Shown here piece by piece: positions 12,507 through 32,000 of a stretch of DNA of 32,000 nucleotides; the first letter of the stretch is position 1; the number at the start of each line of letters is the position of its first letter. A program made the translations under genes and the position numbers. The DNA is from Phycisphaera mikurensis NBRC 102666 (GTDB taxonomy: Bacteria; Planctomycetota; Phycisphaerae; Phycisphaerales; Phycisphaeraceae): positions 1,500,001-1,532,000 of the forward strand of contig NC_017080.1 in assembly GCF_000284115.1 (NCBI RefSeq), read 5' to 3'. Under the pieces are notes generated by a model. That model did not search any database, was not told the DNA's origin, and was given only the letters and a program-made list of their open reading frames with translations.

Positions 12507-12508
12507 CG

Positions 12509-13279: not shown

Positions 13280-14074
13280 TCAGCCCGCGCGGCGGCGGCC
13301 CAGGAGGCCGAATCCGGCGAGGCCGAGGGCCAGGAGGCCGACGGGCTCGGGCACGACGTTGACCAGCGGGCCGGTGTTGTCGGCGACGACGTAAGCGAGG
13401 TTGAAGTCGCTGGTGGAGCCATCCTCGGCCCCGAGGTCGTAGAAGACGATCGAGTCGATGGTGTACGTGGTGCCGTCCAGCTCGCCGTTGCTCGCGCCGA
13501 ACAGCGGGTTCCACTGCGCGGCGTCGGCGAGGCTCCACTGGTAGAGGTGGTACTCGCCGTCGGCGATGACGTCCTGCGCCACGCTGCCCTCGGTGCCGCC
13601 GGAGCCGCCGGTCTCGTCGAGCGCGATGCGCACGCTCAGGTCCGGGGACGTCGTCTGCAGGTAGAAGCCCACGGAGCCCACGCCGCCCGCCGCGGAGACC
13701 AGGTTCGCCGCGGACGGGGCGCCGCCGTTGGCGATGTGGCGGAGCGTCCAGGCGGTGGGGACGCCGTAGTTCAGGCCGCCGCCAAAGAGGTTGTCGTCGG
13801 TGATCGACAGATTGTTCACGTAGGAGGTGCCGCCGCCGGGCGTGAAGTCCCACGGCGTCGAGCTGATCGCGGTGGTGCCGGAGACGGCGCCGCCGTTGGA
13901 GCCCGATCCCGCCGGGCCGACGCCGCTGCGGAAGATCCCGAAGCTTGGATCCACCACCTGGGTGGTCGGGTTGAACTCGGCGAAGTCCTCGATGACCACC
14001 GGGGCCGCGGTGGCCGGTGCGGCCGCGAGTGCTGCGGGCGTGGCGACACAGAAAGCGAAGCGAAAGAGAGACAT
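13280..14074 (-). CDS. PEP-CTERM sorting-domain surface protein (PC1)
   Basis: It has an N-terminal signal peptide and the C-terminal sequence VPEPVGLLALGLAGFGLLGRRRAG (PEP motif, TM helix, Arg cluster). A strong SD (GAGGAGG, complement of 14082-14088) lies 7 nt upstream of the ATG. The ~120 aa before the anchor resemble the C-terminal module of the 15262 protein. Confidence 0.85.
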   Translation of the reverse strand: MSLFRFAFCVATPAALAAAPATAAPVVIEDFAEFNPTTQVVDPSFGIFRSGVGPAGSGSNGGAVSGTTAISSTPWDFTPGGGTSYVNNLSITDDNLFGGGLNYGVPTAWTLRHIANGGAPSAANLVSAAGGVGSVGFYLQTTSPDLSVRIALDETGGSGGTEGSVAQDVIADGEYHLYQWSLADAAQWNPLFGASNGELDGTTYTIDSIVFYDLGAEDGSTSDFNLAYVVADNTGPLVNVVPEPVGLLALGLAGFGLLGRRRAG

Positions 14075-14151
14075 CCGAAAACCTCCTCGTGGGGGAGGAG
14101 CCGCAACCCGGCTCCCTGGAGTTCGCCGGCAGCGTGCGCGGCGGTGCCAAA

Positions 14152-14180: not shown

Positions 14181-14254
14181 GAACCTCCGTGAGCGACCCG
14201 TAAATAGGACGCGCCGCGGCCGCTCCCGTCGCATTATTGCCTGCGAAGAAGGCA

Positions 14255-14292: not shown

Positions 14293-14321
14293 CGGTCGCC
14301 CCCCTCTCATCCCCCATCGTC

Positions 14322-15152
14322 ATGAAGCCAGCCACGCCCCTCCGCTCCGCCCCGATGGGCTTCACGCTCATCGAACTCCTCGTGGTGATCTCGATCATCG
14401 CGCTGCTCATCGGGATCCTGCTGCCGGCGCTCGGGGCGGCGCGGAGCAGCGCGAGGGACATGCAGTGCCTCAGCAACACGCGGCAGGTCGCCATCGCGGC
14501 CACCGCCTACGCCACCGACAACAAGGACTACAGCGTCCGCGCGACTTCGAACGGCGCCTTCACCGCGGACAACATCACCGAGTACTGGTCCGGCAAGCTG
14601 GTGATCGGTGAGTACGGCGCGACCGTCGAGATGTACCAGTGTCCGGTCTTCGAGCCGGACCCCAGCTTCACGTTCGACCCCTACGACGGGTCGGCGCTGG
14701 GGGCGATGCTGGCCAACCCCGGCCACATCAACTGGCGGATGATCGACTACGGCACCAATTGGTACACGGTCTCGGGTCGACGGAGCTACGCGCGCCCCGG
14801 GGAGACGGGCCAGCAGGCCGCCGCCCGCAGCATCCAGACCTACAACCTCGCCGACGCGAGCAACACGATTTTCGTGGCGGATTCCTGGTACGAGGCCTTC
14901 GCCGGCGCAGCCAACCAGCGCGGGATCTACGTGATCGGCGGCATCCCCACCAACGGTGGCGGCGTGCACGCGCGGCACGGGAACCAGACGATCAACATCG
15001 GGTACATGGACGGCCACGCCTCCGCCTTCGGCGTCGAGGACATCCGCTTCAACCAGCCCGGCGGTCCTTGGGACCCCGACAACCTCGGAGCCCTCTACAT
15101 CCCCGCGACGAGCGCCGCGACCACGCCCCAGAACCAGTGGGACGAGGAATAG
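14322..15152 (+). CDS. Prepilin-type N-terminal cleavage/methylation-domain protein (planctomycete DUF1559-like pseudopilin), copy 1
   Basis: ORF 14259..15152 trimmed to ATG 14322. The N-terminus is [31 protein letters not shown]-terminal [18 protein letters not shown] segment matches the H-x9-DG-type motif. Confidence 0.9.
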
Positions 15153-15162
15153 GCGGATGCTC

Positions 15163-15208
15163 CCGCGGACCATGATGCGCGGGCGGCCCCGAGCCGCACG
15201 ATCCGCGG
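15163..15208. repeat. 46-bp palindromic element, degenerate copy J
   Basis: Arms CCGCGGACCA (15163-15172) and CGATCCGCGG (15199-15208) each match 9/10, and the interior is exactly 26 nt. It is intercistronic, between stop 15152 and start 15262. Confidence 0.5.
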
Positions 15209-15261
15209 CTGCAAGGCCTTTCCGCCGCCGCGGTTGAACCCCAGCCCCCACACACCCGACC

Positions 15262-16731
15262 ATGTTCTCGCGATCCGCCTCCCCGACGCCGCTGATCCTC
15301 GGCCTCGTGTGCCTCGCCTCCGCTTCCGCCGCCGCGGTCGAAGCCGTCGAGTCCGTCACCATCCGCGACGACAACGGCAACGGGTCGTTCTTCTCGGTCG
15401 ACTTCGAGAACAACTACCTCCCCAACGTGGTGCTCCGCGAGAACGGGGCGGCTTCCTTCGAGGCGCTCAAGGCGCAGGCGGTCGCGGCCCGGACCTTCGC
15501 GTACTACAAGCTGGAGACCGGGAGTTCCTTCATCCGCAACAGCCAGGCGGACCAGGTCTACAGCCTCGGCGGTGCGCGGAGCAACCCCGGCGGGCGGTGG
15601 GACGCGGCCGTGGCCGAAACCGAGGGCGAGTTCCTCAGCTTCGACGGGATCACCACCGCGAGCTTCTACGTGGCGGGGGCGATCCCCTCCTCGCCGACCG
15701 GCTTCGCGAGCCCCTCCGACCCCGACCCGACGAACACGCAGCGGTTCGTGACCTACCCGCGCGCCGACAACCTCGCCGGCCCGAACAACCGGGGGTCGAG
15801 CCTGGGCTTCCGCGGCACGGTCAGCAATCCCAACTACCCCAACCGCGGGGCGATGAGCCAGAACGGGGCGGACGTGCTCTCCGACGAGGGGGTGCACTAC
15901 GCGGACATCCTCAAGACCTTCTACGGCGGCGACATCCAGCTGGGCGTGGCGAGCCAGACCCGCGGGCAGACGCCCTTCGGCGAGAAGAAGCTGGCGACCT
16001 TCGAGCGCAACGACGAGACCTTCGTCCGCCCGCTCACCTTCGCGGGCCAGGCCCGCAACCTCGGGGGCGGCACCTCCGTCGCCCGCACCGCCGCGCGGGC
16101 GACGACCCCCGGGGGGATCTCCCAGGAGCTGGTGATCGACTACGACCCGGTGGCGGACGCGGCCGACGGCGGCGTGGACGGGTTCTTCGTCCGTCACCTC
16201 TCGGGCGCGTCGCTGAGCCAGCGGCTGACGGCGCTGACCAGCGGGACGGTCATCAACCCCGCGGCGGACCCGGTGGGCAACGTGATCCTGCCCACCACCG
16301 GCACGATCGGCTTCTCGCTGCTGGCGGAGCCGGACCCCGCCGCCCTCCCGGGGGCGGCGGCGGGCTTGGAGGTCGCCCTCGCGATCGACGACTTCGGCGA
16401 CGACTCGATCCTGGGCTCGACCACGGAGCAGTCGTTCTTCCAGCCGGTGGTCGCCGACGGGACCTGGCGCCGCTACGAGTGGTCGCTCGAAGACGCGGCC
16501 TTCGCCTCCGCCTTCGGGGCGGCCGGCGACGGGGTGCTGGGCTCCCGCTTCACGCTCGACTCGATCCTCCTCCGCGGCTTCGGCGACGCGACGGTGTACC
16601 TCGACGACGTGTTCTTCGACGCCACGGGCGTGGTCATCCCCGAGCCGACGGCGCTGGTGGCGCTCCTGCTGGCGGGCGCGGCGGCGGGGTCCCGCCGGCG
16701 GCGGAGGGGCTTGATCTCCCCGGCGGGGTGA
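15262..16731 (+). CDS. SpoIID/LytB-domain protein (peptidoglycan lytic transglycosylase-like) with C-terminal PEP-CTERM anchor
   Basis: Signal peptide, then the SpoIID hallmark NNYLPNVVLRENGAASFEALKAQAVAARTFAYYKL. The C-terminus is VIPEPTALVALLLAGAAAGSRRRRRG (PEP-CTERM). Confidence 0.82.
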   Translation: MFSRSASPTPLILGLVCLASASAAAVEAVESVTIRDDNGNGSFFSVDFENNYLPNVVLRENGAASFEALKAQAVAARTFAYYKLETGSSFIRNSQADQVYSLGGARSNPGGRWDAAVAETEGEFLSFDGITTASFYVAGAIPSSPTGFASPSDPDPTNTQRFVTYPRADNLAGPNNRGSSLGFRGTVSNPNYPNRGAMSQNGADVLSDEGVHYADILKTFYGGDIQLGVASQTRGQTPFGEKKLATFERNDETFVRPLTFAGQARNLGGGTSVARTAARATTPGGISQELVIDYDPVADAADGGVDGFFVRHLSGASLSQRLTALTSGTVINPAADPVGNVILPTTGTIGFSLLAEPDPAALPGAAAGLEVALAIDDFGDDSILGSTTEQSFFQPVVADGTWRRYEWSLEDAAFASAFGAAGDGVLGSRFTLDSILLRGFGDATVYLDDVFFDATGVVIPEPTALVALLLAGAAAGSRRRRRGLISPAG

Positions 16732-16845
16732 ACCCCGGCGGGACCCCACGCGGACGTGGATGCCGGGCCATCGCCCGCTCCTCCGCGCGACCCGGGCGGT
16801 GGCACCCGGCTCGGAAAGCTTCCCTCCTCCCGCGCACGCACGCGC

Positions 16846-19910: not shown

Positions 19911-19964
19911 GCAACTCCCTGAAAGCTAAAACGTCTGGAGGAGGAGGGGAGATCCCCGATGTCG

Positions 19965-19997
19965 GTGGCCGCGGCCACGCTCGATGATACTATAAGA
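19965..19997 (-). promoter_or_regulatory. Candidate promoter/operator of the GHL10-MurQ-like operon
   Basis: The minus strand reads TCTTATAGTATCATCG (19997-19982, containing TATAGT). Downstream lies the perfect 14-bp palindrome GTGGCCGCGGCCAC (19965-19978). The element ends 71 nt upstream of ATG 19910 (gap 19911-19981). Confidence 0.5.
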
Positions 19998-20000
19998 CTC

Positions 20001-21176: not shown

Positions 21177-21196
21177 TCGGCCCGCACACCGGCGGC

Positions 21197-22087
21197 ATGC
21201 GCCTGGGCGTGCTCGGCGTCGACAGCTCGCACCTTCCCGAGTTCACGCGTCGCATCGCGGGCTTGAACGAGGCCGGGGCCACCCGCTGCCGCGTGGTGTC
21301 GATGTTCGACGCGGGCGACCACCAGCTGCCCGCGGCGGACGTCGCCGGCTGGGTGGCCGAAGCGAAGGCCATGGGCGTGCAGGAGCGTGGCTCGGTCGAG
21401 GAGCTGCTCGGCGGCGTCGACGGCGTGCTGGTGCTCGCCGTCGCCGGCGGCCGCCACCTGGAGCTGGCGGAGCCGGCGCTGCAGCGTGGCTTGCCGACCT
21501 ACGTCGACAAGCCGCTGGCCTGCACCGCCGCGGACGCCCGGCGGCTCGCCGCCCTCGCGGAGGAGCACGCCGCCCCGTGCTACTCCGCCTCGAGCCTCCG
21601 CTTCGCGGCCGAGCCGGTCGCCGCCGCGGCGGACGCGTCGCTGGGCGACATCGTCGCCGTCGACGCCTTCGGGCCCGGCGAGCTGCTCGACGCGAACCCC
21701 GGCGTGCTGCACTACGGCGTGCACGCGGTGGAGATGGTCGACGCGGTGCTGGGCCCCGGCGTCGCGGAGGTCGCGGCGGAGTCGACCGCGGACCGCGACC
21801 TGGTCCGCCTCCGGTACGCCGACGGCCGGGCCGCCACGCTCCGGCTGGAGCGCAGGGGCAGCTACGACTTCGGCGCCGCCGTTCACGGCACCGCGGGAGC
21901 GTCCTTCTTCAAGGTCGACTTCGCCACCGTGTACGACCGCCTCGTGGAAGCGATGGTCGGCTTCTTCCGGGGCGGCCAGGCCCCGGTCCCGCTGTCGCGC
22001 ATCGTCGAGAACGTCGCCGTGATGGAAGCCGCGAACCGCTCGCGGGAGACCGGCGGCGGGTGGGTGAAGCCGGACGGCGCGCCGTGA
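21197..22087 (+). CDS. Gfo/Idh/MocA-like oxidoreductase, variant N-terminal motif (GVLGVDSSH)
   Basis: ORF 20972..22087 trimmed to ATG 21197 (MRLGVLGVDSSHLPEF). It has a VDKPLA motif. It belongs to the G-x-D-x-S-H subgroup I recall from Planctomycetota and Verrucomicrobiota. Confidence 0.72.
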   Translation: MRLGVLGVDSSHLPEFTRRIAGLNEAGATRCRVVSMFDAGDHQLPAADVAGWVAEAKAMGVQERGSVEELLGGVDGVLVLAVAGGRHLELAEPALQRGLPTYVDKPLACTAADARRLAALAEEHAAPCYSASSLRFAAEPVAAAADASLGDIVAVDAFGPGELLDANPGVLHYGVHAVEMVDAVLGPGVAEVAAESTADRDLVRLRYADGRAATLRLERRGSYDFGAAVHGTAGASFFKVDFATVYDRLVEAMVGFFRGGQAPVPLSRIVENVAVMEAANRSRETGGGWVKPDGAP

Positions 22088-23052
22088 GCGACGGCGACCC
22101 GCCCTGGGCCCGGCTGCCGCGGACCGCGGGCGTTCCGATGCTCAAAGACGCGCGGTCCGCGGATTCCGCGTTGCTCGACGGCCTCTTCGAGCTGCCCGCG
22201 GGCTCGGCGCTCACGGTCGCCGAGGTCGCCGCCGACGGCTCCCTCGTCGCCGCCCGCTGGCGCGGCACCGGCGAGACGCTTTTCTACCCCGCCAGCACGA
22301 TCAAGTGGACGACCGGGGCGCTCGCGGTCGCGCTCATGGACGAGCACGATCTCCCGCCCGAGGCGGTGTTGGCCGTTGGCGACCGGCCCGCCGCGACGCT
22401 GCGCGACCTGGTGCTCTCGATGCTGCAGGCCAGCGACAACGACGCCTTCAACGCGCTGCACGAGTGGGTGGGCACCGCCGAGACCCACGCCGCCATGCGA
22501 TCCTGGGGCTGCACCCACGCGATCGTCCGCCGGCACTTCATGAACCCGCGGTTCACCGGCAGCCCCGCCTGCGTCGCCCGCCGGCCCGACGGCAGCGAGG
22601 TCGTCTTCGAGGCGAAGCCCGAGGTCGACATGCCGCTCTCGACCGACCGGCCGCCGCCGGACGGCAACCCCGAGGCCAACGCCTTCACCACCGACGACCT
22701 CGTCCGCGTGGGCGCCGCCACGCTGATGGGCCCGATCCGCGACGCCGCGGCCTTCGGCCTGTTCGCCTGCGGGCTGTCGTGGACCTGCCAGGCCTACGTC
22801 CGCGCCGGCCTCGCCCGGCTCACCGCCGGCCGGCCGGACCGCCCGGGCTTCGTCGTACTCAACAAGCCCGGCTGGTGGCCACCCGACGGCGCCAACAGCG
22901 AGTTGAACTACGTGCACGACGTGGCGCACGGCCGGCACCTCTTCCTGGCGGTGTACGCGCAGGGCACCGAGGCCGAGGCGGAGGCGGGCGTGTCGGCGGC
23001 GGCCGAGGCCGTCGGGGCGGCGCTGCTGGCGGGCCGTCTTCGGCTCGCCTGA
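22084..23052 (+). CDS. Class-A beta-lactamase-like serine hydrolase (S-x-x-K, S-D-N); start uncertain
   Basis: Motifs ASTIKW (SxxK), QASDNDAFN (SDN) and NKPG (KTG-like). GTG 22084 overlaps the upstream stop (GTGA), but a 46-bp palindromic element occupies 22117-22162. Alternative starts are ATG 22138 (in the element loop) and TTG 22171. Confidence 0.72.
   Translation: MSDGDPPWARLPRTAGVPMLKDARSADSALLDGLFELPAGSALTVAEVAADGSLVAARWRGTGETLFYPASTIKWTTGALAVALMDEHDLPPEAVLAVGDRPAATLRDLVLSMLQASDNDAFNALHEWVGTAETHAAMRSWGCTHAIVRRHFMNPRFTGSPACVARRPDGSEVVFEAKPEVDMPLSTDRPPPDGNPEANAFTTDDLVRVGAATLMGPIRDAAAFGLFACGLSWTCQAYVRAGLARLTAGRPDRPGFVVLNKPGWWPPDGANSELNYVHDVAHGRHLFLAVYAQGTEAEAEAGVSAAAEAVGAALLAGRLRLA
22117..22162. 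repeat. 46-bp palindromic element, copy D
   Basis: The arms are exact and extend to 12 bp (CCGCGGACCGCG / CGCGGTCCGCGG). The 26-nt interior contains ATG 22138. It starts 29 nt after the stop of the preceding gene. Confidence 0.85.
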
Positions 23053-23082
23053 GGAAAGCCCCGGAGGGGGAGCCGTCTTATG

Positions 23083-23098
23083 GTAAATTGTTTACAAT
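23083..23098. promoter_or_regulatory. AT-rich overlapping dyads, candidate operator (GntR/AraR-type) or promoter
   Basis: GTAAA-ttg-TTTAC (23083-23095) overlaps ATTGT-tt-ACAAT (23087-23098). TACAAT (23093-23098) could also serve as a -10 box. It lies 78-93 nt upstream of ATG 23176, heading the glycosidase-regulator pair. Confidence 0.4.
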
Positions 23099-23175
23099 GC
23101 TGTCCTGTCCGCCGCCACCGCGCCGGGGCGGGCTCCTCCCAAGCGAAGCCGCGGGCGCATCCCTCTTATGCACTT

Positions 23176-24099
23176 ATGCTTCGTTGCGTGTCCCTGATCC
23201 GCCCGCTGCTCGCCGCCCTGGTCCTCGCCCCGGGGCCTTGCGCCGCGGCTGCGGGTGCCGCGGAGTCGCCCTGGGTGCTCGTTGCGGCCGCGGACACGCC
23301 CGCGCAGGACGGGCCGGTGGCGGTGCAGGAGGCCCGCCTGGAGACGCCCGCGGGCCCGGTGCGCGGCCTCCTCGCGCAGGTCGATCTGACCGACCCCCGC
23401 GTGGAGGTGGTGGTCACGGAGCGGCCCGCGGAGGTCCCGCCGCCGCCCGCGGAGGTGCCCCGGGTGGGCGTGGCGGGCTTCGCCGCCGAGCGCGGCCTCG
23501 CGGTCGCCGTCAACGCCAACTACTTCGCGACGCTGGGCCCCGATGCCGACGTCCTGGGCCTGTGCGTCGCCGACGGCGTCGTGGTCTCGCCGGCGCGCTT
23601 CTTCGCCGGCACCGGCGACCCGGTCCTCGCCTTCGCCGCCGACGGCACCGCCGCCGCCTTCGTGCCCGACACGCCGGAGGACCCGCGGCTGGCCGCCTTC
23701 GACGCCGTCGCGGGCATCGGCGCCTCCCCCACCGACCCCGACCGCGGCGGCCTGCTCGTCGAGGGCGGCGTCTCCCGGGGCGGATCCGCCCGCGTCGAGC
23801 CGCTGGCCCGGCACCCCCGCACCGTCGCGGGCGTCGACGCCGGCGGCGGCGTGCTCACGCTGGCCGTGATCGACGGGCGGGAGGCGGGCGGCTCCGCCGG
23901 CGCCACGCTGCCCGAGGCCGCGGCGCTGCTCCTGCAGGCGGGCGTGAGCGACGGCGTGAACCTCGACGGCGGCGGATCCAGCGTCATGTACGTCGGCCCG
24001 GGGGTCGCGGGCGCCGAAGCGTTCACCAGTTCGCCTTCGGAGGACCGGCCGGTGGCCGCCATCCTGGGCGTCCGCCTCCGGGAGAGCTCCAGCCGATGA
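23176..24099 (+). CDS. Phosphodiester glycosidase-family protein (NAGPA/DUF2233-like), secreted
   Basis: ORF 23080..24099 trimmed to ATG 23176 (MLRCVSLIRPLLAALVLAPGPCAAAAG, a signal peptide). Motifs VAVNANYF and GVNLDGGGSSVMYV. Confidence 0.78.
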   Translation: MLRCVSLIRPLLAALVLAPGPCAAAAGAAESPWVLVAAADTPAQDGPVAVQEARLETPAGPVRGLLAQVDLTDPRVEVVVTERPAEVPPPPAEVPRVGVAGFAAERGLAVAVNANYFATLGPDADVLGLCVADGVVVSPARFFAGTGDPVLAFAADGTAAAFVPDTPEDPRLAAFDAVAGIGASPTDPDRGGLLVEGGVSRGGSARVEPLARHPRTVAGVDAGGGVLTLAVIDGREAGGSAGATLPEAAALLLQAGVSDGVNLDGGGSSVMYVGPGVAGAEAFTSSPSEDRPVAAILGVRLRESSSR

Positions 24100-25235
24100 T
24101 CGGTCGCCCCGCCACGCCCCCCGAACGCCCCCGCGACGCCGCCGCCGGCCCGCTGCGGCCGGTCCGCCCGCGCGCGGGGGCGCTGCTCTACGTCACCGTC
24201 CGCGACGCGCTGCACGACGCGATCCGCGACGGCCGCTTCGCGCCGGGCGAGCGGCTGCCCAGCACCAAGGACCTCGCCGCCATGTTCGAGGTCTCGCTGG
24301 TGACGACCCACCGGGCGATGCAGTCGCTGGAGGCCCGGGGCGTGCTCGACCGGGTGCAGGGCCGCGGCACCTTCGTCACCGAGCGCTCGGAGCGTCGCGT
24401 CCGCCGGCTCGCCGTGGTGCTCCAGCCGCAGGCGTCCCTCGCCGACTACTACTACGGCGACCTGCTCGACGGCATGAACCGGGCCGCGCGGGAGCTCGGC
24501 GCCGACCTGCTCATCCGCCACGCGACCGAGCCGGTGCGCCGCGTGGTGCCCGCCAGCAACGGCTCCTCGCCCGAGCGCGTGTGGGGCGGCTGCGACGCCC
24601 ATCTGCTCGTGAACCCGCTGCCCGAGGCCGCCGAGGCCTTCGCGGTCACCCTCGAGGACGGCGTGCCCTCGGTGCTGGTCGGGGCCCGCCACGGCGACAT
24701 GCCCCACGTGGACGTGGACAACGCCGACCTGATCGAGCAGGCGGTCACGCACCTCCACGACCGCGGCCACCGCCGCATCCTCTTCGTCGGCGGTGCCGGC
24801 AACCTCTCCAACAGCCGCGACCGGCTGGACGCCTTCGCCACGACCTGCGAGGCCTTCAAGGTGGCGGCGGCGCCGCGGCTGGTGGCGTCCAGCTGGCGGC
24901 TGCACGACGGCGAGAAGCGGGAGCTGGGCGACCTGCTCGGCTCCAGCGGCGGGCCCACGGCCGTCGTCGCCGCCGGCTACTACCTCGCGTTGGACGTTTA
25001 CGACGTCGCGGGTCGCCGCGGCCTGGAGATCCCCAAGCACCTCTCGGTCGTGGGCGTCGGCGACCCGATGAGCGCCCCGCACCTCTCGCCGCCGCTGACC
25101 ACGATGCGCCAGCCGCTCGTGGAGCTCGGCCACGCCGCCGTGGAGGCGGCCATCCACCTCATCGAGGGCGAGCCGCAGCCGAGCATCAACCTCCGGGCCC
25201 GGCTGGTGCCCCGCGCTTCCTGCCGCGCCATCTAG
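24096..25235 (+). CDS. AraR-type transcriptional regulator: GntR-family wHTH fused to a LacI/PBP1 sugar-binding domain
   Basis: ATG 24096 overlaps the upstream stop (ATGA). The N-terminus LPSTKDLAAMFEVSLVTTHRAMQSLEARGVLDRVQGRGTFV is a GntR HTH. The rest resembles a LacI-type ligand-binding domain (RRILFVGG, AVVAAGYYLALDVYD, LSVVGVGD, LTTMRQP). Confidence 0.85.
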   Translation: MIGRPATPPERPRDAAAGPLRPVRPRAGALLYVTVRDALHDAIRDGRFAPGERLPSTKDLAAMFEVSLVTTHRAMQSLEARGVLDRVQGRGTFVTERSERRVRRLAVVLQPQASLADYYYGDLLDGMNRAARELGADLLIRHATEPVRRVVPASNGSSPERVWGGCDAHLLVNPLPEAAEAFAVTLEDGVPSVLVGARHGDMPHVDVDNADLIEQAVTHLHDRGHRRILFVGGAGNLSNSRDRLDAFATTCEAFKVAAAPRLVASSWRLHDGEKRELGDLLGSSGGPTAVVAAGYYLALDVYDVAGRRGLEIPKHLSVVGVGDPMSAPHLSPPLTTMRQPLVELGHAAVEAAIHLIEGEPQPSINLRARLVPRASCRAI

Positions 25236-25332
25236 GCGACGCCGCCGGGGGGCGATCGAGGCCCTGCACCCGCCGGGCGGGCCGGGCGAGCCGGACATGA
25301 ATCGGGTGCCGCGACCGCCTCGGGTGGCGACT

Positions 25333-25378
25333 CCGCGGACCGTCGGCGTTTACGCTGCGCCGGCTCCACGGTCCGCGG
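25333..25378. repeat. 46-bp palindromic element, copy C, in a 5' leader
   Basis: The arms are exact and extend to 12 bp (TCCGCGGACCGT 25332-25343 / ACGGTCCGCGGA 25368-25379). The interior has an inner stem CGGCG-tttacgctg-CGCCG. It ends 10 nt before ATG 25389. The interior starts and ends like copy A. Confidence 0.85.
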
Positions 25379-25388
25379 ATCCACCGGC

Positions 25389-27056
25389 ATGCCCGACACC
25401 CTCCAGACGCCCATCCTCATCGTCGGCGCCGGCTGCGGCGGCTTCGCCGCCGCGCTCGCGGTTGCCCGCGCCGGCGGCTCCTGCGTCCTCACCGAGCCCA
25501 CCGATTGGGTGGGCGGGCAGCTGACCAGCCAGGCGGTGCCGCCGGACGAGAACGCCTGGATCGAGCCGGACGTCGGCGACGCGCAAGCGGCGACGGCGTC
25601 GTACCTCGCCTTCCGCGAGGCGGTCCGCAGCCGCTACCGGCGGGCGGAGTGCCTGACCGCCGCCGCCGCCGCCCGGCCGCGGCTCAACCCCGGCGACGGC
25701 TGGGTCAGCCGCCTGTGCTTCTCGCCCCGCATCGGCCAGGAGGTGCTCCGGGAGACGATCCGCCCGCACGTGGAGGCGGGGCGGATCCGCCTGCTCCTCG
25801 AGCACGAGCCGGTTTCCGCGGACGGCGCCGCCAACCGCGTGCGGAGCGTCACGGTCCGCGGCGGCGACGGCCGCGAGACCCGCATCGCCGCCGACTACGT
25901 GCTCGACGCCACCGAGGCGGGCGACCTGTACCCGCTGACCGGCTGCGAGCACGCCGTGGGCGCCGAGTGCCGCGACGCCTACGGCGAGCTGCACGCGCCC
26001 GCCGGCCGCGGCGACGGCCCCGGCGGCAGCCACCCGCGCGACCAGCAGGCCGTCTCGTGGTGCTTCGCGATGGAGCACCGGCCCGGGAGGAACCACGTCG
26101 GTCCCGAGCCCGAGGGCTACGCCCGCTGGCGCTCCTTCGTGCCGGACCTCGACCCGCCCTGGTGCGGGCCCCTGTTCTCGTGGCTGTCCCCCGGGGTCGA
26201 CGAGAGGCCCCGCGAGATGGGCATGGTCCCGTGGCCGGACCGGCCCGCCGACGGCGTCTGGGAGCTGTGGCGGTACCGGCGGATCGTCGACGCCTCCGCG
26301 CACACCGACGGCCGGCCCGACGTGTGCCTGGTGAACTGGGTGCAGATGGACCAGTTCGTCGAGCCGGTGCTGGGCGTGAGCCCCGATGCCGCCCGGGCCG
26401 CGCTTAAGCTCGCGAAGCAGCAGGCGCGCTGCCTCTTCCACTGGATGCAGACCGAGGCCCCGCGGCACGACGGCGGGCGCGGCTACCCGGGCTTGAAGCT
26501 CCGCGGCGACGAGCTTGGGACCGACTCGGGCTTCGCGAAGGCGGCCTACATCCGCGAGCCCCGCCGGCTGCTCGCGCGGACGATCATCCACGAGGGGCAC
26601 CTCGGCGCTGCGCAGCGTCGGGCCGCCGGCGAGCCGGAGGTCCCCGAGCTCGCCACGACCCTCGGCGAGTCCGTCCCCGCCGCCGAGCCCTTCGCCGACG
26701 CGGTCGGCGTCGGCCACTACCGCCTCGACCTGCACCCCAGCTGCGCCGGCCGCAACAGCGTCTACGTCGAGGCCGCGCCGTACCGCATCCCGCTCGGCTC
26801 GCTCATCCCCGTCCGCGTGGAGAACCTGCTCGCCGCCGGCAAGGGCTTCGGCGTCAGCCACGTGGTCAACGGCTGCACCCGGCTTCACCCGGTCGAGTGG
26901 ACCGTGGGGGAGGCGGCCGGCGAGCTCGCCGCGTGGTGCCTGGAGCACGGCCGCACGCCCGCCGAGGTGCACGCCGACGCCGCGCAGACCCGTCGCTTCC
27001 AGGACCGGCTGCGGGCCCGCGGCTTTGCGCTGGCCTGGCCTTGGGAGAAATCCTGA
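25389..27056 (+). CDS. FAD-dependent oxidoreductase (FAD_oxidored/PF12831-like)
   Basis: ORF track 555 aa. The N-terminus is ILIVGAGCGGFAAALAVARAG....TEPTDWVGGQLTSQAVPPDE (dinucleotide-binding fold), followed by a DATEAGDL motif. Confidence 0.85.
   Translation: MPDTLQTPILIVGAGCGGFAAALAVARAGGSCVLTEPTDWVGGQLTSQAVPPDENAWIEPDVGDAQAATASYLAFREAVRSRYRRAECLTAAAAARPRLNPGDGWVSRLCFSPRIGQEVLRETIRPHVEAGRIRLLLEHEPVSADGAANRVRSVTVRGGDGRETRIAADYVLDATEAGDLYPLTGCEHAVGAECRDAYGELHAPAGRGDGPGGSHPRDQQAVSWCFAMEHRPGRNHVGPEPEGYARWRSFVPDLDPPWCGPLFSWLSPGVDERPREMGMVPWPDRPADGVWELWRYRRIVDASAHTDGRPDVCLVNWVQMDQFVEPVLGVSPDAARAALKLAKQQARCLFHWMQTEAPRHDGGRGYPGLKLRGDELGTDSGFAKAAYIREPRRLLARTIIHEGHLGAAQRRAAGEPEVPELATTLGESVPAAEPFADAVGVGHYRLDLHPSCAGRNSVYVEAAPYRIPLGSLIPVRVENLLAAGKGFGVSHVVNGCTRLHPVEWTVGEAAGELAAWCLEHGRTPAEVHADAAQTRRFQDRLRARGFALAWPWEKS
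25816..25861. repeat. 46-bp palindromic element, variant copy G, inside a CDS
   Basis: Left arm CCGCGGACGG (9/10), right arm exact, interior 26 nt. Same codon phase as the other coding copies; it encodes SADGAANRVRSVTVRGG. This segment looks like a native part of the FAD fold, so its origin is unclear. Confidence 0.5.
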
Positions 27057-27072
27057 ATCCGTCGCAGAGGGG

Positions 27073-27128
27073 GTGATCCCCCGTGATCCGCCCTTGACAC
27101 GGGCGTGCCGCGGGGTATCTTCTATAAG
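27073..27128 (+). promoter_or_regulatory. Candidate promoter of the PC2-pseudopilin-ABC operon
   Basis: A direct repeat GTGATCC occurs twice (27073-27079, 27083-27089; 10-bp period). It abuts a consensus -35 TTGACA (27094-27099), followed by 16 nt and TATCTT (27116-27121), then TATAAG (27123-27128). ATG 27212 lies about 85 nt downstream with a GGAGA SD. Confidence 0.5.
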
Positions 27129-27211
27129 TCCGCACGGGGCTCTTCTGCTCCCGGCGGGCACGGCGACCGCTCGCCCGCGGTGCCGGACCCGCATTCCCTG
27201 GAGAACGATCC

Positions 27212-28363
27212 ATGACCGCCACCCCCGCCTGCAAGGGCCTCCTCGCCATCGCCGCCGCCGCCTTCGGCGGGTCGGCTTTCGCCGCGCCGAGCACGAGCGT
27301 CGACTTCTACAACCTCGGCGGCTTCAGCCTCGTCGGCTCATCGCCCACGGGCTCGATCGGTTCCGCCGCGTCGCTGGCCTACGACGGCAGCACGCTCTAC
27401 CTCGGGCAGGGGGCCGGACCGGCGACGTCGGCCGCTCCCTTCACCTTCGTGGACGATGCCTTCGGCGCCAACAACATCGGCACCAGCTTCGGCTCGGCGG
27501 TCGGCGGCAACGGTGTGACCGGGCTTGACGTCGCCGACGGCATCCTCGTGGGCGTCTCCACCAACGGCGGGGCCAACGACACGCTGCAGGTCTTCAACGT
27601 GGCCACCACGCCCACGGCCACCGCTGCCGGCGTGGTCTCCCCCGGCGACGTGGGCATGACCCGCTTCGACGCGGTCGCCCTCGACCCCGGCTTCGTCGCC
27701 GGCACACAGGGCGGTGCCGGTGTCTCCGCCGTGCAGTTCGGCAGCGGCAACCGTCGCCTCATCGATCCCGCCACCGGCAACCTTCTGAACACCGGTCCGG
27801 GCTACTTCAACGGCGCCGGCGGCAGCGGCTTCCGCGGCCTCGACTACGACCCGGCCACCGGCGACGTGTACGCCCGCACCGTCAACGGCATCCAGGTCGG
27901 CGTCCGCTCCGGCGACAATGGCGTGCAGACCGTCGGCGGCGCCGCGGGCACCAGCCAGGTCGTTGCCGATCCCAGCGGCTTCGCGGTGGGCCTGAACGTC
28001 GCCTACCTCGGCGACTTCGGAGGCAACGCCGACGACGCGTTGTTCATCTACAACGACCTGTCGGACGTCACCAGCACGTCCAGCTTCGACGCGTTGAACC
28101 TCGCGCAGCAGGACGGCGCCGCGGTCGCGGTCAACTTCCTCAACGCCGACGGCAGCGCCGCCTTCGCCGAGGTGCTGCAGACCTCGAACCAGACCGGCGT
28201 CTTCGACTTCAGCTTCGACCCCGGCACCGGGCAGCTGGCCGTTCTGGACGTCGCCAACGCCTACGTCTACCTCTTCGACGGCGAGCCGATCCCCGAGCCC
28301 GCCACCGCGGCGGTCGTCGCCCTCGGCGGCCTGGCCCTCCTGGGCCGCCGCCGCACCGCCTGA
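27212..28363 (+). CDS. PEP-CTERM sorting-domain surface protein (PC2)
   Basis: ORF track 383 aa. Signal peptide (LLAIAAAAFGGSAFA) and C-terminal IPEPATAAVVALGGLALLGRRRTA. Confidence 0.85.
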   Translation: MTATPACKGLLAIAAAAFGGSAFAAPSTSVDFYNLGGFSLVGSSPTGSIGSAASLAYDGSTLYLGQGAGPATSAAPFTFVDDAFGANNIGTSFGSAVGGNGVTGLDVADGILVGVSTNGGANDTLQVFNVATTPTATAAGVVSPGDVGMTRFDAVALDPGFVAGTQGGAGVSAVQFGSGNRRLIDPATGNLLNTGPGYFNGAGGSGFRGLDYDPATGDVYARTVNGIQVGVRSGDNGVQTVGGAAGTSQVVADPSGFAVGLNVAYLGDFGGNADDALFIYNDLSDVTSTSSFDALNLAQQDGAAVAVNFLNADGSAAFAEVLQTSNQTGVFDFSFDPGTGQLAVLDVANAYVYLFDGEPIPEPATAAVVALGGLALLGRRRTA

Positions 28364-28390
28364 GCCTCCGGCTCGATCGGACCGACCTTC

Positions 28391-28422
28391 GGCGTCCCGC
28401 GGCCCACCGGCCGCGGGACGCC
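28391..28422 (+). terminator. Perfect GC-rich hairpin (14-bp stem, 4-nt loop) after the PC2 gene
   Basis: GGCGTCCCGCGGCC-cacc-GGCCGCGGGACGCC followed by TTCT. It starts 28 nt after stop 28363 and lies 65 nt before ATG 28487. Confidence 0.65.
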
Positions 28423-28486
28423 TTCTCCCGGAGGAGACCCCACCACAAAGCCGCCCCGAAGACGCCGACGCGTCGAAAGATCCCGC

Positions 28487-29299
28487 ATGAACGCCTCCTC
28501 CCCCCGCCGTTCCGGTTTCACCCTGATCGAGCTGCTGGTCGTGATCAGCATCATCGCCCTGCTCATCGGGATCCTGCTGCCGGCGCTGGGCGCGGCCCGT
28601 GCGAGCGCCCGCACCCTCTCTTGCCTCAGCAACATCCGACAGATGACGATCGCGACGCTCAACTACGCGACCGACAACAAAGACGAGCTGCCCACGACGT
28701 TCGTGACGGACAACAACAACGACGGCACGAACGACCTCTGGTTCGACAAGCACATGATCGGGTACTACCTCCCCGACAGCGGCGTCTCCAGCTCGGCCTC
28801 GATCGATGGCTTCGCGTTCATCTGCCCCTCCGACGAGGGGAGCGTTCGCACCTACTCCATGAACGCCCGCGCGGCCAGCGACGCCAAGGAAGTCGGCATC
28901 AACAACGAGCGGAACAGCTCCTTCGACCTCAACGCGGGCGCAGGCACGCAGCTGATCCTCTTCGGAGAGGGGTGGGGGCGGTTCGGCACCGAAGCGCAGC
29001 ACTTCTCCAACGCCACGATCGGCGCCGAGGCCGGAACCACCCCCGGCGGACGCTTCGGCGGCACAGCGACGACGTTCAACAACCTCGCCTTCTACGGAGC
29101 CGCGAACGCCGCTCAAGCCAACACCAACTACCTCCTCCACGGCGGTGACGACATCAACCGTGCCGACGGTGCGAGCAACTGGACCTTCCTGGACGGGCAC
29201 GGCGAGACGGCGCAGCAGGAGACGCTCTACGATGCGTCCACGGGGCTCTCGACGTACAAGTTTCTGTGGTCGGAAACCGACCGGCAGTCCGAGCCGTGA
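28487..29299 (+). CDS. Prepilin-type N-terminal cleavage/methylation-domain protein (DUF1559-like pseudopilin), copy 2
   Basis: The N-terminus [33 protein letters not shown] is nearly identical to copy 1 and includes a 29-nt identical DNA stretch. The C-terminus is [10 protein letters not shown]. The stop lies 6 nt before the binding-protein GTG. Confidence 0.9.
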
Positions 29300-29305
29300 G
29301 CTCGT

Positions 29306-30739
29306 GTGGTCGCTCGCTTCCTCCTGATCGCCGTGCTCGCGGGCTTGCCGCTGCTCAATGCGTGCGACCGCCGGAGCTCCGACGCGAAGCGCCTGGAGGT
29401 CTGGACCCTCGCCCTCTCCCCCTACTTCGACGACTACCTCACCGGCGTGTTCGGCGCCTTCGAGGCGGAGCATCCCGGCACCGAGGTCGTCTGGGTGGAC
29501 GTGCCCTTCGACGCGATCAACCGCAAGCTGGTCGCGGCCGCGGCGGCGGGGCGGGCGCCGGACGTGGTGAATCTCTCCGACCGTGATTTCGCTCGCGTGG
29601 CGGCGCTCGGCGGCCTGGCGGACCTCGACCCGTTGCTCGCGGACGGCGTGGTCGAGCGGTACCTGCCGGGCGCGGTCCGCGGGTTGCGGCTGAACGGCGG
29701 CCTGCGGGCGCTGCCGTGGTACCTGACGACGCAGGTGCGGATGGCCAACGCGGCGACGCTCGCCCGCGGCGGGCTCACGCCCGACACGCTCGCCAACGAC
29801 TGGACCGGGCTGCGCGACCAGGCGCGGGCCTACCACGAGGAAACCGGCGGCTTCCTCTTCTCGGTGCCGCTGGGCGAGACCTCCGAGCTGCCGATGATGC
29901 TGCTCAGCGAGGGCATCCGGCCGTTCCGCGAGACGCCGGATGGCTTGGTCGCCGACCTCACGCGTGAAGAAGTCGCCGGCTACGTCTCCGCCTGGGTCGA
30001 CCTCTACCGCGAGGGCGCCCTGCCCCGCGCCGCGGCCACCCGCGACCACACGCACCTGGTCGAGGGCTACCAGAAGGGCGAGATCGCGCTGATCCAAACC
30101 GGCAGCAACATGCTCGGCCGCATCCGCGACGCCGCGCCCGACGTGTACGGCGAAACCGTCGTGAAGCCCGGCGTCACCGGCCGCCTGCAGCGCTCGCACA
30201 TCGCCGCCATGGTGGTCGGCGTGAGCGGCAGAAGCGAACACCCCGAGGAGGCGGCCGCGCTCGCCGCCTTCCTCACGAGCCCCGCCAGCCAGACCGGCCT
30301 CTCCAAGCAAAGCGGCGTGCTGCCCTCGACGCCCGCCAGCCTCGACGACCCGTACTTCGCCTTCCCGGAGGGCGCGTCCGATGATCCGGAGGCCCGGCTC
30401 ACGGAGGCCCGCGCCACCAGCGCCGCCTCGCTGCGCACCGCCGTGGCGTTCACCCCCGCGATGGAGACCTGGCCCGAGCTGCGCCGCGCCTTCAACGAGG
30501 GCATCAAGCGCGCCCTGCTCGGCGGCGAGCCGACCGCCGGCGTCCTCGCCTCCATCGAGGCCGAGTGGAACCGCATCCTCGCCGCCGCCCGCCCCGTCGG
30601 CCCCGACGCCCTCCCGCCGGCGTCCCGGGTGCCACGCCCCTTGGGGGGTGGCGTTGGAAGTTCGGTGAGCGTCCCCACCCCCCAAGGGGCGTGGCACCCG
30701 GTTCCGGCCGCGGGCCTCGTCCTGCCGGAGGCCGCGTGA
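29306..30739 (+). CDS. ABC transporter extracellular solute-binding protein (family 1/CUT1-like), lipoprotein
   Basis: GTG 29306. Lipobox LPLLNAC. Motifs PDVVNLSD, YLPGAVRGLRLNGGLRALPWYL and GEIALIQTGSNM are typical of sugar-binding proteins. The last ~45 codons run through the 30625 inverted repeat and look non-native. Confidence 0.82.
   Translation: MVARFLLIAVLAGLPLLNACDRRSSDAKRLEVWTLALSPYFDDYLTGVFGAFEAEHPGTEVVWVDVPFDAINRKLVAAAAAGRAPDVVNLSDRDFARVAALGGLADLDPLLADGVVERYLPGAVRGLRLNGGLRALPWYLTTQVRMANAATLARGGLTPDTLANDWTGLRDQARAYHEETGGFLFSVPLGETSELPMMLLSEGIRPFRETPDGLVADLTREEVAGYVSAWVDLYREGALPRAAATRDHTHLVEGYQKGEIALIQTGSNMLGRIRDAAPDVYGETVVKPGVTGRLQRSHIAAMVVGVSGRSEHPEEAAALAAFLTSPASQTGLSKQSGVLPSTPASLDDPYFAFPEGASDDPEARLTEARATSAASLRTAVAFTPAMETWPELRRAFNEGIKRALLGGEPTAGVLASIEAEWNRILAAARPVGPDALPPASRVPRPLGGGVGSSVSVPTPQGAWHPVPAAGLVLPEAA
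29637..29682. repeat. 46-bp palindromic element, variant copy K, inside a CDS
   Basis: Left arm TCGCGGACGG (8/10 to consensus), right arm exact, interior 26 nt. Same codon phase as the other coding copies; it encodes LADGVVERYLPGAVRGL, which looks like a native binding-protein segment. Confidence 0.45.
30625..30701. repeat. Perfect 27-bp inverted repeat with a 23-nt loop (REP-like hairpin) at the binding-protein/permease junction
   Basis: The left arm CCGGGTGCCACGCCCCTTGGGGGGTGG (30625-30651) is the exact reverse complement of 30675-30701. I verified this base by base. It lies within the last 115 nt of the 29306 ORF. Confidence 0.92.
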
Positions 30740-31581
30740 AGCGAATCACCCCGTGGCTGTTCCTGTTCCCGGCGCTCCTGGTCCTGGGCGTGTTCGTCGT
30801 CGCGACCTTCGTGCAGGTCCTCTGGTACTCCTTCACCGACTTCAACGCCTTCAACGACGGCCGCTTCGTGGGCCTCGCCAACTACCGCCGCCTGCTCGCC
30901 GACGAGAAGTTCTGGTTCTGCCTCGGCAACAGCTTCCTCTACCTGCTCGTGACGCCGGTGCTGATGGCGCTCGCCCTCGCCGCCGCGCTGCTCGTCCACG
31001 CCGGGCTCCGCGGCCTCTGGGGCCTGCGGGCGTGGCTCTTCCTCCCGGTCGTCACGCCGACGATCGTCGCGGCGATCGCCTGGCGGCTGCTGCTCGACGA
31101 GGACGGCGGGCTCTTCAACCAGGTGCTGGCGTGGCTGGGCTCGGGCCCGGTCTACTGGCTCAGCGAGCGGCCCTGGAGCCTGATGTCGGCGATGATGGTG
31201 ACGGTGTGGAAGGGCTTCGGCTACTTCATGATGGTCTTCCTCGCCGGCCTGGTCGGCATCCCGCGCGAGCTGCACGAGGCCGCCGAGATCGACGGCGCCG
31301 GCCGCTGGTCGTCCTTCCTGCACGTCACGCTCCCGGGCTTGCGTCCGGTGCTGGTGCTGGTCGCGCTGATCTCCTCGATCTCGGCGCTCAAGGTCTTCGA
31401 AGAGCTCTACGTCACCATCAAGGGCGCCCCCGTCAGCCAGCAGACCGCCGTGCCGCTGATCTTCGACACCGCCTTCGAGCAAGGCGACTTCGGCCGGGCC
31501 TGCGCCATCGGCGTCGTGCTCTTCGCGGTCGTTCTCGTGTTCTCGCTGGTGCAGCTGCGGGTGGTCCGGGACCAGGCATGA
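30736..31581 (+). CDS. ABC transporter permease (MalF/UgpA-like, binding-protein-dependent transport TM component)
   Basis: ORF 30565..31581 trimmed to GTG 30736, which overlaps the upstream stop (GTGA). It shows multiple TM segments and the EAA loop ELHEAAEIDGAGRWSSFLHVTLPGLRP. Confidence 0.88.
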   Translation: MKRITPWLFLFPALLVLGVFVVATFVQVLWYSFTDFNAFNDGRFVGLANYRRLLADEKFWFCLGNSFLYLLVTPVLMALALAAALLVHAGLRGLWGLRAWLFLPVVTPTIVAAIAWRLLLDEDGGLFNQVLAWLGSGPVYWLSERPWSLMSAMMVTVWKGFGYFMMVFLAGLVGIPRELHEAAEIDGAGRWSSFLHVTLPGLRPVLVLVALISSISALKVFEELYVTIKGAPVSQQTAVPLIFDTAFEQGDFGRACAIGVVLFAVVLVFSLVQLRVVRDQA

Positions 31582-32000
31582 GCGGACTCTCCCCCACCGC
31601 CCGCCCGCTGCCGCTGCTGGTCGCCATGTACCTGGGAGCGCTCGCGCTCATGCTGCTGGCGGTGGGGCCGGCGATCTGGCTGGTGGGGGTGGCGCTCTCG
31701 CCGCCGAGCGTGCCGCTGTCGCGGCTGCCCGGGCCGAGCGAGATGACGCTGGGCAACTTCGAGGGCGCTTGGAACGAGGCGCAGCTGGGGCGGGCGCTCG
31801 CCAACTCGGTGATCGTCACCGCCGCGCAGACGCTGCTCAACGTGCTGCTTGCCGCGATGGCCGCCTACCCGCTGGCCCGCATGCGCTTCCGCGGCCGCGG
31901 GCTGGTCTTCGTGCTCGTGCTCGCGACGATCATGGTGCCCGAGCAGGTGATCCTCGTGCCGCTGTTCCGCACCGTCGTCGGCCTGGGCCTCTACGATACG
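31578..32000 (+). CDS. ABC transporter permease 2 (MalG/UgpE-like), 3'-truncated by the window end
   Basis: ATG 31578 overlaps the upstream stop (ATGA), and the frame is open to the window end. My translation is MSGLSPTARPLPLLVAMYLGALALMLLAVGPAIWLVGVALSPP...AAYPLARMRFRGRG. It is not in the ORF track because no stop is reached. Confidence 0.82.
   Translation, partial: MSGLSPTARPLPLLVAMYLGALALMLLAVGPAIWLVGVALSPPSVPLSRLPGPSEMTLGNFEGAWNEAQLGRALANSVIVTAAQTLLNVLLAAMAAYPLARMRFRGRGLVFVLVLATIMVPEQVILVPLFRTVVGLGLYDT

Follow-up and report, generated by a model that had tools for sequence, protein, structure and literature searches.

What is the role of a type IV pilin-like protein whose gene adjoins a sugar importer operon? 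The question is raised by a stretch of 32,000 nucleotides from Phycisphaera mikurensis NBRC 102666 (assembly GCF_000284115.1, contig NC_017080.1, positions 1,500,001 to 1,532,000 of the forward strand), which is referred to here as the window and is numbered from its first letter. The gene of interest, pp2 (28487..29299, plus strand), encodes a type IV pilin-like protein that bears a signal peptide of class III. It is followed on the same strand by the gene for the lipoprotein solute-binding protein of a CUT1-type sugar ATP-binding cassette (ABC) importer (29306..30739) and by the genes for permease 1 (30736..31581) and permease 2 (31578..32000), the latter running past the window end. Upstream lies PC2 (27212..28363, plus strand), which encodes a secreted protein with a PEP-CTERM-type C-terminal sorting tag. 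What appears to be new here is a pilin-like gene, with a head of unsolved fold, as the conserved leading gene of a CUT1 sugar importer operon in the Phycisphaerae. No description of this operon turned up in the literature that was searched on DUF1559, H-X9-DG, prepilin and PEP-CTERM proteins in Planctomycetota, and the searched literature described no bacterial ABC importer operon with a pilin-like gene among its conserved members. The calls of open reading frames (ORFs) and motifs are heuristic throughout.

Conserved linkage of pp2 with the importer genes

Related loci were chosen through an alignment of binding-protein homologues (binding-protein identity 42-59%), which gave 80 loci of about 21 kb each from species-representative genomes; all of them belong to the Phycisphaerae (Phycisphaerales and Tepidisphaerales). 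A prepilin-type ORF was scored if it carried the motif [GA]FTLIELLVV..., lay on the same strand as the binding-protein match, and ended less than 400 nt upstream of it. Of the 73 loci whose upstream sequence was long enough, 60 had such an ORF immediately before the binding-protein gene, so that the joining of a pseudopilin gene to an ABC importer operon, which the initial annotation of the window had pointed out, is kept among orthologous loci. It was usually the sole prepilin ORF in about 21 kb, and only 8 others were present in about 1.3 Mb. The adjacency is far beyond chance; since the 80 loci are phylogenetically related, the count should be read as conservation and not as 60 independent events. 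Moreover, a full-length pp2 homologue was detected by tblastn in 70 of the 80 loci. The distance from the pilin-like stop codon to the first possible start of the binding-protein gene had a median of 25 nt (63 loci), and a 4-nt overlap was possible in 14.

The commonest gene order was GFO, NagB/PIG-L, one further gene, two GFO genes, optionally NAGPA, a PC2-like gene, GntR, the pilin-like gene, the binding protein, permease 1, permease 2, and an FAD oxidoreductase. The GntR regulator gene was found in 59/80 loci and is immediately upstream of the pilin-like gene in most relatives; the FAD oxidoreductase gene (50/80 loci) varies in position, lying upstream of the pilin-like gene in some loci and downstream of permease 2 in others. 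In 58 of 64 loci, a PEP-CTERM-type ORF (PEP, PAP or PTP, a hydrophobic stretch, and RR) had its end no more than 2.5 kb upstream of the pilin-like gene. Five rearranged loci keep the pilin-like gene inside, in the order FAD oxidoreductase, binding protein, two permeases, GntR, two PEP-CTERM genes, pilin-like gene, and a third PEP-CTERM gene. The linkage between the pilin-like gene and the importer thus persists despite rearrangement of the other genes, and throughout the Phycisphaerales and Tepidisphaerales the importer operon or locus has the pilin-like gene among its conserved members.

The junctions in the window are tight. The binding-protein gene starts with GTG at 29306, 6 nt past the TGA of pp2, its stop codon overlaps the start of permease 1 (GTGA, 30736-30739), and the stop codon of permease 1 overlaps the start of permease 2 (ATGA, 31578-31581). 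The gap and overlaps, together with the gene coordinates, an intergenic hairpin and a 29-nt run of identity with a second pilin-like gene (pp1), had been listed in the initial annotation, and all were borne out by the ORF listing and by direct reading. The genes for pp2 and the binding protein are in the same reading frame in the window. Stop-codon read-through joining the two proteins was considered and rejected; the same frame occurs in about 16 of 63 loci, which does not exceed the chance level of one-third.

The sole sigma-70-like site in 24000-32000 is TTGACA-16-TATCTT at 27094-27121 (chance expectation 0.1). It belongs to a promoter-like element (27093..27130, plus strand; CTTGACA-N16-TATCTTCTATAAGTC) that is perfectly conserved in the two close relatives L081 and L087. 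The L081 copy of the element is followed by a PEP-CTERM gene whose body is unrelated; the L087 copy stands immediately 5' of the pilin-like gene, with no PEP-CTERM gene between, and this position supports a single transcription unit. Such a unit would comprise PC2, pp2, the binding protein and the two permeases, and the simplest reading is a promoter, an optional PEP-CTERM cassette with a hairpin, and then the pilin-like, binding-protein and two permease genes. As far as comparative genomics goes, the functional link that had been suggested between the pseudopilin, the importer and the PEP-CTERM protein is strongly supported by the linkage, the nearby PEP-CTERM genes and the promoter-like element. 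The AT-rich run TATCTTCTATAAGTC itself (27116-27130) is invariant in three relatives. It may be an operator for the GntR/Peripla_BP_3 regulator, because the run exceeds the -10 hexamer in a genome of 74% G+C.

The region between PC2 and pp2 contains a double hairpin (28391..28436, plus strand). The first hairpin is a perfect 14-bp GC stem with a 4-nt loop (28391-28422), and the second is small (UCUCC-CGGA-GGAGA) and ends at 28436; the intergenic fold has an energy of -56.7 kcal/mol (z = -3.15). In L081 the double hairpin is identical except for one loop base, and the neighbouring intergenic sequence has diverged. It occurs once in the window and is not a repeated element. A known RNA family was ruled out, as no Rfam match was obtained. 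The double hairpin is a candidate intra-operon attenuator or mRNA-stability element.

The pp2 protein has the N-terminus of a type IV pilin-like protein. A short basic leader of 10 residues and a predicted cleavage point are followed by FTLIELL with Phe at +1, as in prepilin-type signals, and the models N_methyl (33.7 bits, cut-off 21.2) and TIGR02532 (27.6 bits, cut-off 16.3) are both matched. Glu5 and a hydrophobic alpha1-N region, which characterise type IV pilin-like proteins, are present. In an alignment of 50 homologues (overall identity to pp2 36-82%), no variation was seen at 23 of the first 28 mature positions, among them Glu5 (E15 of the precursor); residue -1 is G or A among the orthologues, and all 50 homologues match pilin or pseudopilin N-terminal models. 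The N-terminal similarity is of the GspG, GspH and GspI types. Against the GspG model for the major pseudopilin of the type II secretion system (T2SS; TIGR01710), pp2 scored 31.3 bits over model positions 1-61 of 134, below the equivalog cut-off of 88.85. Weak matches to the pseudopilin HpsB were found in 3 of the 50 family members.

Other invariant or near-invariant positions in the 50 homologues are C46, C113, W85, Y94, R121, Y123, N126, E161, H218, D236-G237-H238, W261 and D265, of which C46, W85, Y94, R121, H218, D236 and H238 are invariant, and a disulfide between C46 and C113 is probable. The confident AlphaFold2 (AF2) model of full-length pp2 (predicted local distance difference test, pLDDT, 88.3; predicted template modelling score, pTM, 0.84) consists of a helix of about 50 residues (13-63) and a head of about 210 residues that is mainly beta and coil; the head alone gave a pLDDT of 88.8 and a pTM of 0.88. 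Foldseek searches of the PDB with the full-length and head-only models retrieved no pilin or other fold below E = 3, and a PDB profile search with pp2 matched only the helix (type IV pilins and GspG) and nothing for the head. As modelled, the head matches no solved fold in the PDB. A periplasmic-binding-protein fold, which the name SBP_bac_10 might hint at, was rejected as a misfit with the mostly beta and coil secondary structure. When the head alone was searched, 175 cluster representatives were found among 1.84 billion. In untruncated matches the pp2-type head always follows a pilin N-terminal region of about 60-100 residues, and the exceptions are truncated entries.

The label "DUF1559-like", which had been given to pp2, holds for part of the protein. 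PF07596 (DUF1559/SBP_bac_10) scored 31.4 bits, above the gathering threshold of 23.3, and aligned at model positions 2-47 of 268 only; the aligned stretch is the last part of the pilin helix and does not include the head, and the same holds for 49 of the 50 relatives. The helix thus fits the model, and the head lies outside the match. TIGR04294 (H-X9-DG) did not match pp2 at E <= 0.01, and it matched 13 of the 50 relatives weakly (best E = 6e-4). In pp2, H218 and D236-G237 are 17 residues apart. Several pp2 homologues are named H-X9-DG proteins by the Joint Genome Institute (JGI).

Exchange of pilin heads and PEP-CTERM bodies

The identity of the pilin-like proteins ordinarily tracks that of the binding proteins, with discrete exceptions. 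For example, between the window and L081 the binding protein is 81-83% identical, permease 1 is 95% identical and the FAD oxidoreductase 76%, and the pilin-like protein is 42% identical; permease 1 is also 95% identical in L087. The same pattern recurs in L015/L019, L053/L070, L010/L012 and others. In these head swaps the heads are 41-45% identical where the binding proteins are 68-83% identical, and between close relatives with exchanged heads the transporter keeps 78-95% identity. In the same 67 loci, clustering at 50% identity split the heads into 19 clusters and the binding proteins into 2, and left permease 1 as a single cluster.

The DNA comparison between the window (28288-28686) and L081 (3887-4306) showed that similarity is kept over the PEP-CTERM tail, the hairpin and the 5' end of the pilin gene, and is lost in the PC body and the pilin head. 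Cassettes might be exchanged by recombination in which these conserved joints act as the arms. Bodies and heads do not change together: L088 and L089 combine the head type of the window with an L081-type PEP-CTERM protein, and L015 and L019 have PC proteins of 88% identity with heads of 41% identity. Co-variation between PEP-CTERM body and pilin head, as would be expected of a specific pair, was ruled out by this independent assortment. Such cassette variability beside a conserved transporter points to a module that may be exposed and specificity-determining, or antigenically selected.

L081 and L087 also share one assembly (sample ERZ25039505), which contains two versions of the importer locus. 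L081 has a PEP-CTERM gene and a head of 44% identity, and L087 has no PEP-CTERM gene and a head of 66% identity; in both, small ORFs and a gene of the zeta-toxin/AAA_33 type come after permease 2. The two may be co-existing strains or paralogous loci.

The PC2 protein ends with IPEP, a hydrophobic stretch and RRR (IPEPATAAVVALGGLALLGRRRTA). Its score against the Pfam PEP-CTERM model (16.4 bits) is below the cut-off of 20.7, no NCBIfam match was obtained, and the body has no sequence relative in Pfam, NCBIfam or the PDB. PC2-like genes were found by tblastn in 27 loci. The body is replaced in L081, L088 and L089, and the PEP-CTERM gene is absent in L087; PC2 is a variable, optional cassette. 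The sorting motifs tallied in PC2-like proteins were 24 PAP, 18 PEP, 15 PTP and 1 PSP. Many PC2-like proteins of the Phycisphaerae (such as L024 6586-7746) have VPAP or VPTP in place of VPEP, followed by a hydrophobic stretch and an Arg cluster, which is a variant sorting motif that the standard PEP-CTERM models miss. No exosortase gene was found in the window.

The importer, its glycan context and related pilin-like genes

The binding protein matched SBP_bac_8 and SBP_bac_1 (E about 1e-24), which places it in Cluster B/CUT1. Its lipobox (LLNAC) has a Cys that is conserved in at least 90% of the orthologues. The permeases are of the MalF/MalG type expected of CUT1 systems: both are BPD_transp_1 proteins, permease 1 being UgpA/MalF-like and permease 2 MalG/UgpE/GlcU-like (NCBIfam GlcU, UgpE and MalG). 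No CUT1 ATPase subunit gene was found within the window, which stops inside permease 2; 3' of permease 2 the relatives have either the gene for the FAD oxidoreductase or a group of small ORFs with a zeta-toxin gene. CUT1 systems commonly share an ATPase that is encoded elsewhere, and the ATPase for this importer is presumably of this kind.

The closest solved structure to the binding protein is 6WPM (MsBP; E = 4.6e-56 across the full length), which prefers phosphorylated sugars with zinc. The family corresponds to KEGG K17244, "putative chitobiose", and JGI labels homologues as chitobiose binding proteins; the ligand of the K17244-type family lacks validation (PMC8938411). The identity of the importer substrate is uncertain. 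MsBP itself, the Synechococcus relative, is encoded by an orphan gene in an mreBCD operon (PMC8938411). In Poriferisphaera corsica (L083 8001-10052), two tandem pilin-like paralogues lie near mreB, mreC and mreD, which may be a coincidence with the MsBP case.

The window as a whole (73.8% G+C) is an island of genes for glycan utilisation, with amino sugars and substrates of the peptidoglycan type at its centre. Its genes for amino-sugar and peptidoglycan catabolism include a NagB and PIG-L fusion, two GHL10 proteins and an Amidase_2 protein (N-acetylmuramoyl-L-alanine amidase), and there are also genes for a GKRP/SIS (MurQ-like) protein, an NAGPA phosphodiester glycosidase, a class-A beta-lactamase-like protein and a heparinase II/III-like protein. 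Four GFO/IDH/MocA oxidoreductases are encoded as well. Upstream of the promoter-like element are the genes for a sugar-responsive regulator with GntR helix-turn-helix and Peripla_BP_3 domains in Pfam (24150..25235, plus strand, start approximate) and for an FAD-dependent oxidoreductase (25389..27056, plus strand; PF12831, E = 1e-78). The region 6479-24099 resembles a peptidoglycan and amino-sugar catabolic island, and its oxidoreductases hint at an oxidative route of glycoside cleavage. A long ORF at about 2470-4648 (plus strand) has a coding-type G+C at third codon positions (0.91), no Pfam match and no counterpart in the related loci.

A second pilin-like gene, pp1 (14322..15152, plus strand; N_methyl and TIGR02532), has a different head type. 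It is divergent from PC1 (13280..14074, minus strand), which encodes a PEP-CTERM protein (TIGR02595, 17.3 bits, cut-off 16), and is followed by a gene for a SpoIID-domain protein with a PEP-CTERM tag (15262..16731, plus strand; SpoIID 43.9 bits, TIGR02595 21.8 bits). The near-identical N-termini and divergent C-terminal domains that had been described for the two pseudopilins were confirmed: 29 mature residues are the same in pp1 and pp2, the identity over 58 residues is 81%, and nothing is detectable beyond. The 29-nt identical run is present, and gene conversion as its cause was rejected; it is explained by amino-acid identity and codon bias (codon-usage simulation P = 0.06), so there is no sign of conversion. 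The view that the module occurs twice stands for the architecture and not for the sequences, since PC1 and PC2 have no similarity outside the sorting tag of about 22 residues, and the pseudopilin heads are of different types.

The pp1 protein has its own orthologues in other contexts. In L084, a close relative, the divergent pair of PC1 (75%) and pp1 (73%) orthologues is kept in a different neighbourhood, the two genes having moved together; module 1 has no transporter link. Conservation of module 1 (pp1, PC1 and the SpoIID-PEP-CTERM gene) in the importer loci was also looked for, and it was not found among them. The SpoIID domain combined with a PEP-CTERM tag implies a surface-displayed cell-wall-degrading enzyme, possibly scavenging foreign peptidoglycan; other genomes do not keep this gene in their importer loci. 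In the window, pp1 sits among peptidoglycan-degrading genes, another pp1-type gene adjoins peptidoglycan-recycling genes of the NamZ, S66, S13 and beta-lactamase types, and paralogues of the pp family adjoin GH20, GH125 or NamZ genes. A general adjacency of pilin-like and binding-protein genes was rejected on the basis of two Poriferisphaera corsica paralogues, which adjoin GntR and GH20 or are in tandem, with no transporter nearby. Pilin-like genes tend to occupy glycan loci, often with a PEP-CTERM partner, and the tight transporter link is shown only for the pp2 family and this importer family.

Proposed role of pp2 and comparison with known systems

The reading that we tentatively prefer, at a little below an even chance, is that pp2 may be a subunit, specific to its locus, of a type IV filament and may act together with the importer to acquire an amino-sugar glycan. 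The pp2 protein would be inserted in the inner membrane and cut by a prepilin peptidase. It would then join a type IV filament (a pseudopilus or pilus) through the N-terminal helix common to the paralogues, with the machinery encoded elsewhere. The variable head might act as the locus-specific module, capturing the glycan or guiding it to the membrane-tethered binding protein and the permease, and the PEP-CTERM protein could be a surface partner. The near-absolute conservation of the helix, as opposed to the hypervariable head, argues for common machinery or for co-assembly of paralogues, since a passive membrane anchor would not need such conservation. The proposed fibre adaptor is also consistent with the invariant N-terminus, the swappable head and the published fishing-rod hypothesis (PMC5394234, PMC12078418).

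Several observations weigh against this reading. No assembly ATPase, platform protein, secretin or prepilin peptidase was found in the window or in the 21-kb loci, and the linkage count comes from loci related by descent. About half of the orthologues have Ala and not Gly at -1, the head has no recognisable carbohydrate-binding fold in the Foldseek search of the PDB, and some pilin-like paralogues are not near any transporter. The described Phycisphaeraceae lack crateriform structures, although they are reported to have fimbriae; the entry for Phycisphaera mikurensis gives no crateriform structures and gives fimbriae (PMC8882080). Moreover, because the binding protein too is tethered to the membrane, the operon data would be fitted equally well by a pp2 that does not polymerise and acts only in the periplasm.

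Such an unpolymerised role is the first alternative, and it seems unlikely but still of some weight. The class III signal and the helix would serve only to anchor the head in the inner membrane beside the permeases, and pp2 would be a periplasmic accessory of the importer that docks the binding protein, or pre-binds or trims the substrate. The tight operon coupling with junctions of the translational-coupling type, the lipoprotein nature of the binding protein (which puts both proteins on the same membrane face) and the lack of filament machinery nearby are as expected of such an accessory; by analogy, archaeal sugar-binding proteins that use class III signals without long pili (PMC3047682) may offer a parallel. 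However, a simple anchor should allow conservative changes, whereas paralogues and members of different orders all keep the same 23 of 28 helix residues, Glu5 among them. In addition, the docking partner of a conserved binding protein (68-83%) would not be expected to swap its head down to 41-45% identity.

A second alternative, which appears improbable, is that pp2 is a cargo-specific minor pseudopilin. It would tune a common type II secretion system so that the exoproteins of its own locus, the PEP-CTERM protein and enzymes that degrade glycans, are exported across the outer membrane, and the importer link would reflect co-regulation only. This would agree with the PEP-CTERM-type genes within 2.5 kb upstream, the movement of the PC1-pp1 pair as a unit, the GspG-, GspH- and GspI-type N-terminal similarity, and the rearranged loci, where the pilin-like gene is flanked by PEP-CTERM genes and not by the binding-protein gene. 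However, the independent assortment of PEP-CTERM bodies and head types (L088/L089 and L015/L019) weakens it, L087 retains the pilin-like and binding-protein genes with no PEP-CTERM gene after the promoter-like element, and in 63 loci the pilin-like gene abuts the binding-protein gene and not an enzyme gene. It is very improbable that the pilin-like and PEP-CTERM genes serve exopolysaccharide or matrix secretion and sorting, like the hormogonium-polysaccharide pseudopilins, as mere neighbours of the importer: the tie of PEP-CTERM/exosortase systems to exopolysaccharide producers (PMC10957091, citing Haft 2006), the weak HpsB matches and the dense matrix formed by Phycisphaerae (PMC8882080) would fit, but the window has no glycosyltransferase, Wzx/Wzy or exosortase gene, the neighbours are all catabolic or import-related, and the pilin-like gene is bound to the importer by the common promoter and by gaps that do not exceed 25 nt.

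If the filament reading is extended, one type IV filament might serve as a general nutrient-acquisition organelle in the Phycisphaerae and, by extension, in DUF1559-rich bacteria of the Planctomycetes-Verrucomicrobia-Chlamydiae (PVC) group. It would have a constant stalk and exchangeable substrate-specific heads, each encoded and co-regulated with its own transporter or catabolic locus, and the heads and PEP-CTERM proteins would be swapped by recombination at conserved joints. Such an organelle would be the bacterial equivalent of the archaeal bindosome and would offer, without TonB, an alternative to glycan capture of the Sus-like kind; we regard this wider proposal as possible but doubtful. 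That heads and PEP-CTERM bodies are swapped beside a transporter that is so well conserved points to exposure at the surface or to retargeting to other substrates, and the pp2 head would be a structural novelty relative to the PDB.

The comparison with known families starts from the DUF1559/SBP_bac_10 and TIGR04294 proteins of PVC bacteria, which have the same N-terminal architecture and a C-terminal His...Asp-Gly-His signature; whereas the PF07596 match of pp2 is partial, TIGR04294 does not match pp2, and the head family is small (175 representatives). The DUF1559-type proteins are the largest planctomycete paralogue family; one model species has 68 of them, of which two are essential and none has an assigned function (PMC10632474). 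Published descriptions of DUF1559 go no further than a large family of paralogues or a presumed "solute-binding" family. The T2SS pseudopilins GspG-K share the class III signal, Glu5 and the similarity of the N-terminal helix; whereas pp2 scores far below their equivalog cut-offs, its head is unrelated, and it is encoded in an importer operon and not in a gsp cluster.

Functional likenesses could also be drawn. In competence type IV pili, a minor pilin binds DNA, which is then passed to ComEA and ComEC. The proposed path is alike in that a filament subunit would capture a polymer and pass it to a periplasmic or membrane-tethered binding protein and then to an inner-membrane channel; whereas in competence the substrate is DNA, the pilins are encoded in pilus operons and not in a transporter operon, and there is no ABC importer. 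The PilC protein of Streptococcus sanguinis is a minor subunit with a pilin N-terminus and a ConA-like lectin module as its carbohydrate-binding head (PMC6497953). Proteins of this type differ in that the genes are in a pilus locus, the role is adhesion, and the folds are recognisable; whereas the pp2 head is without a solved match. For the PEP-CTERM partner, the exoprotein ZepA, which serves zinc uptake, is a functional precedent.

Two further parallels concern sugar uptake. In the archaeal bindosome of Sulfolobus solfataricus (Bas system), type IV pilin-type signals are carried by proteins that serve sugar ABC importers, and an assembly like a type IV filament places substrate-capturing proteins at the envelope (PMC3047682). 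There the binding protein itself bears the class III signal, whereas here it has a lipoprotein signal (LLNAC) and is accompanied by a separate pilin-like protein with an unrelated head; moreover, the pp2 system is bacterial and diderm, with no Bas-like genes in the locus. In planctomycetes, dextran binds to pili-like fibres (PMC5394234), and the players in glycan uptake without Sus/TonB systems have not yet been named (PMC12673574). The fishing-rod hypothesis (Boedeker et al. 2017) proposed that pilin-like proteins bind polysaccharide and bring it into the periplasm (PMC5394234, PMC12078418). That hypothesis is based on microscopy in Planctomycetia and names no genes; whereas here a specific pilin-like family is tied genetically to an importer in the Phycisphaerae. 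The pp2 operon is thus a first concrete gene set with which the fishing-rod idea could be tested, comprising a pilin-like gene, a binding protein, permeases, a PEP-CTERM partner, a regulator and a promoter, and it is present in cultivated organisms.

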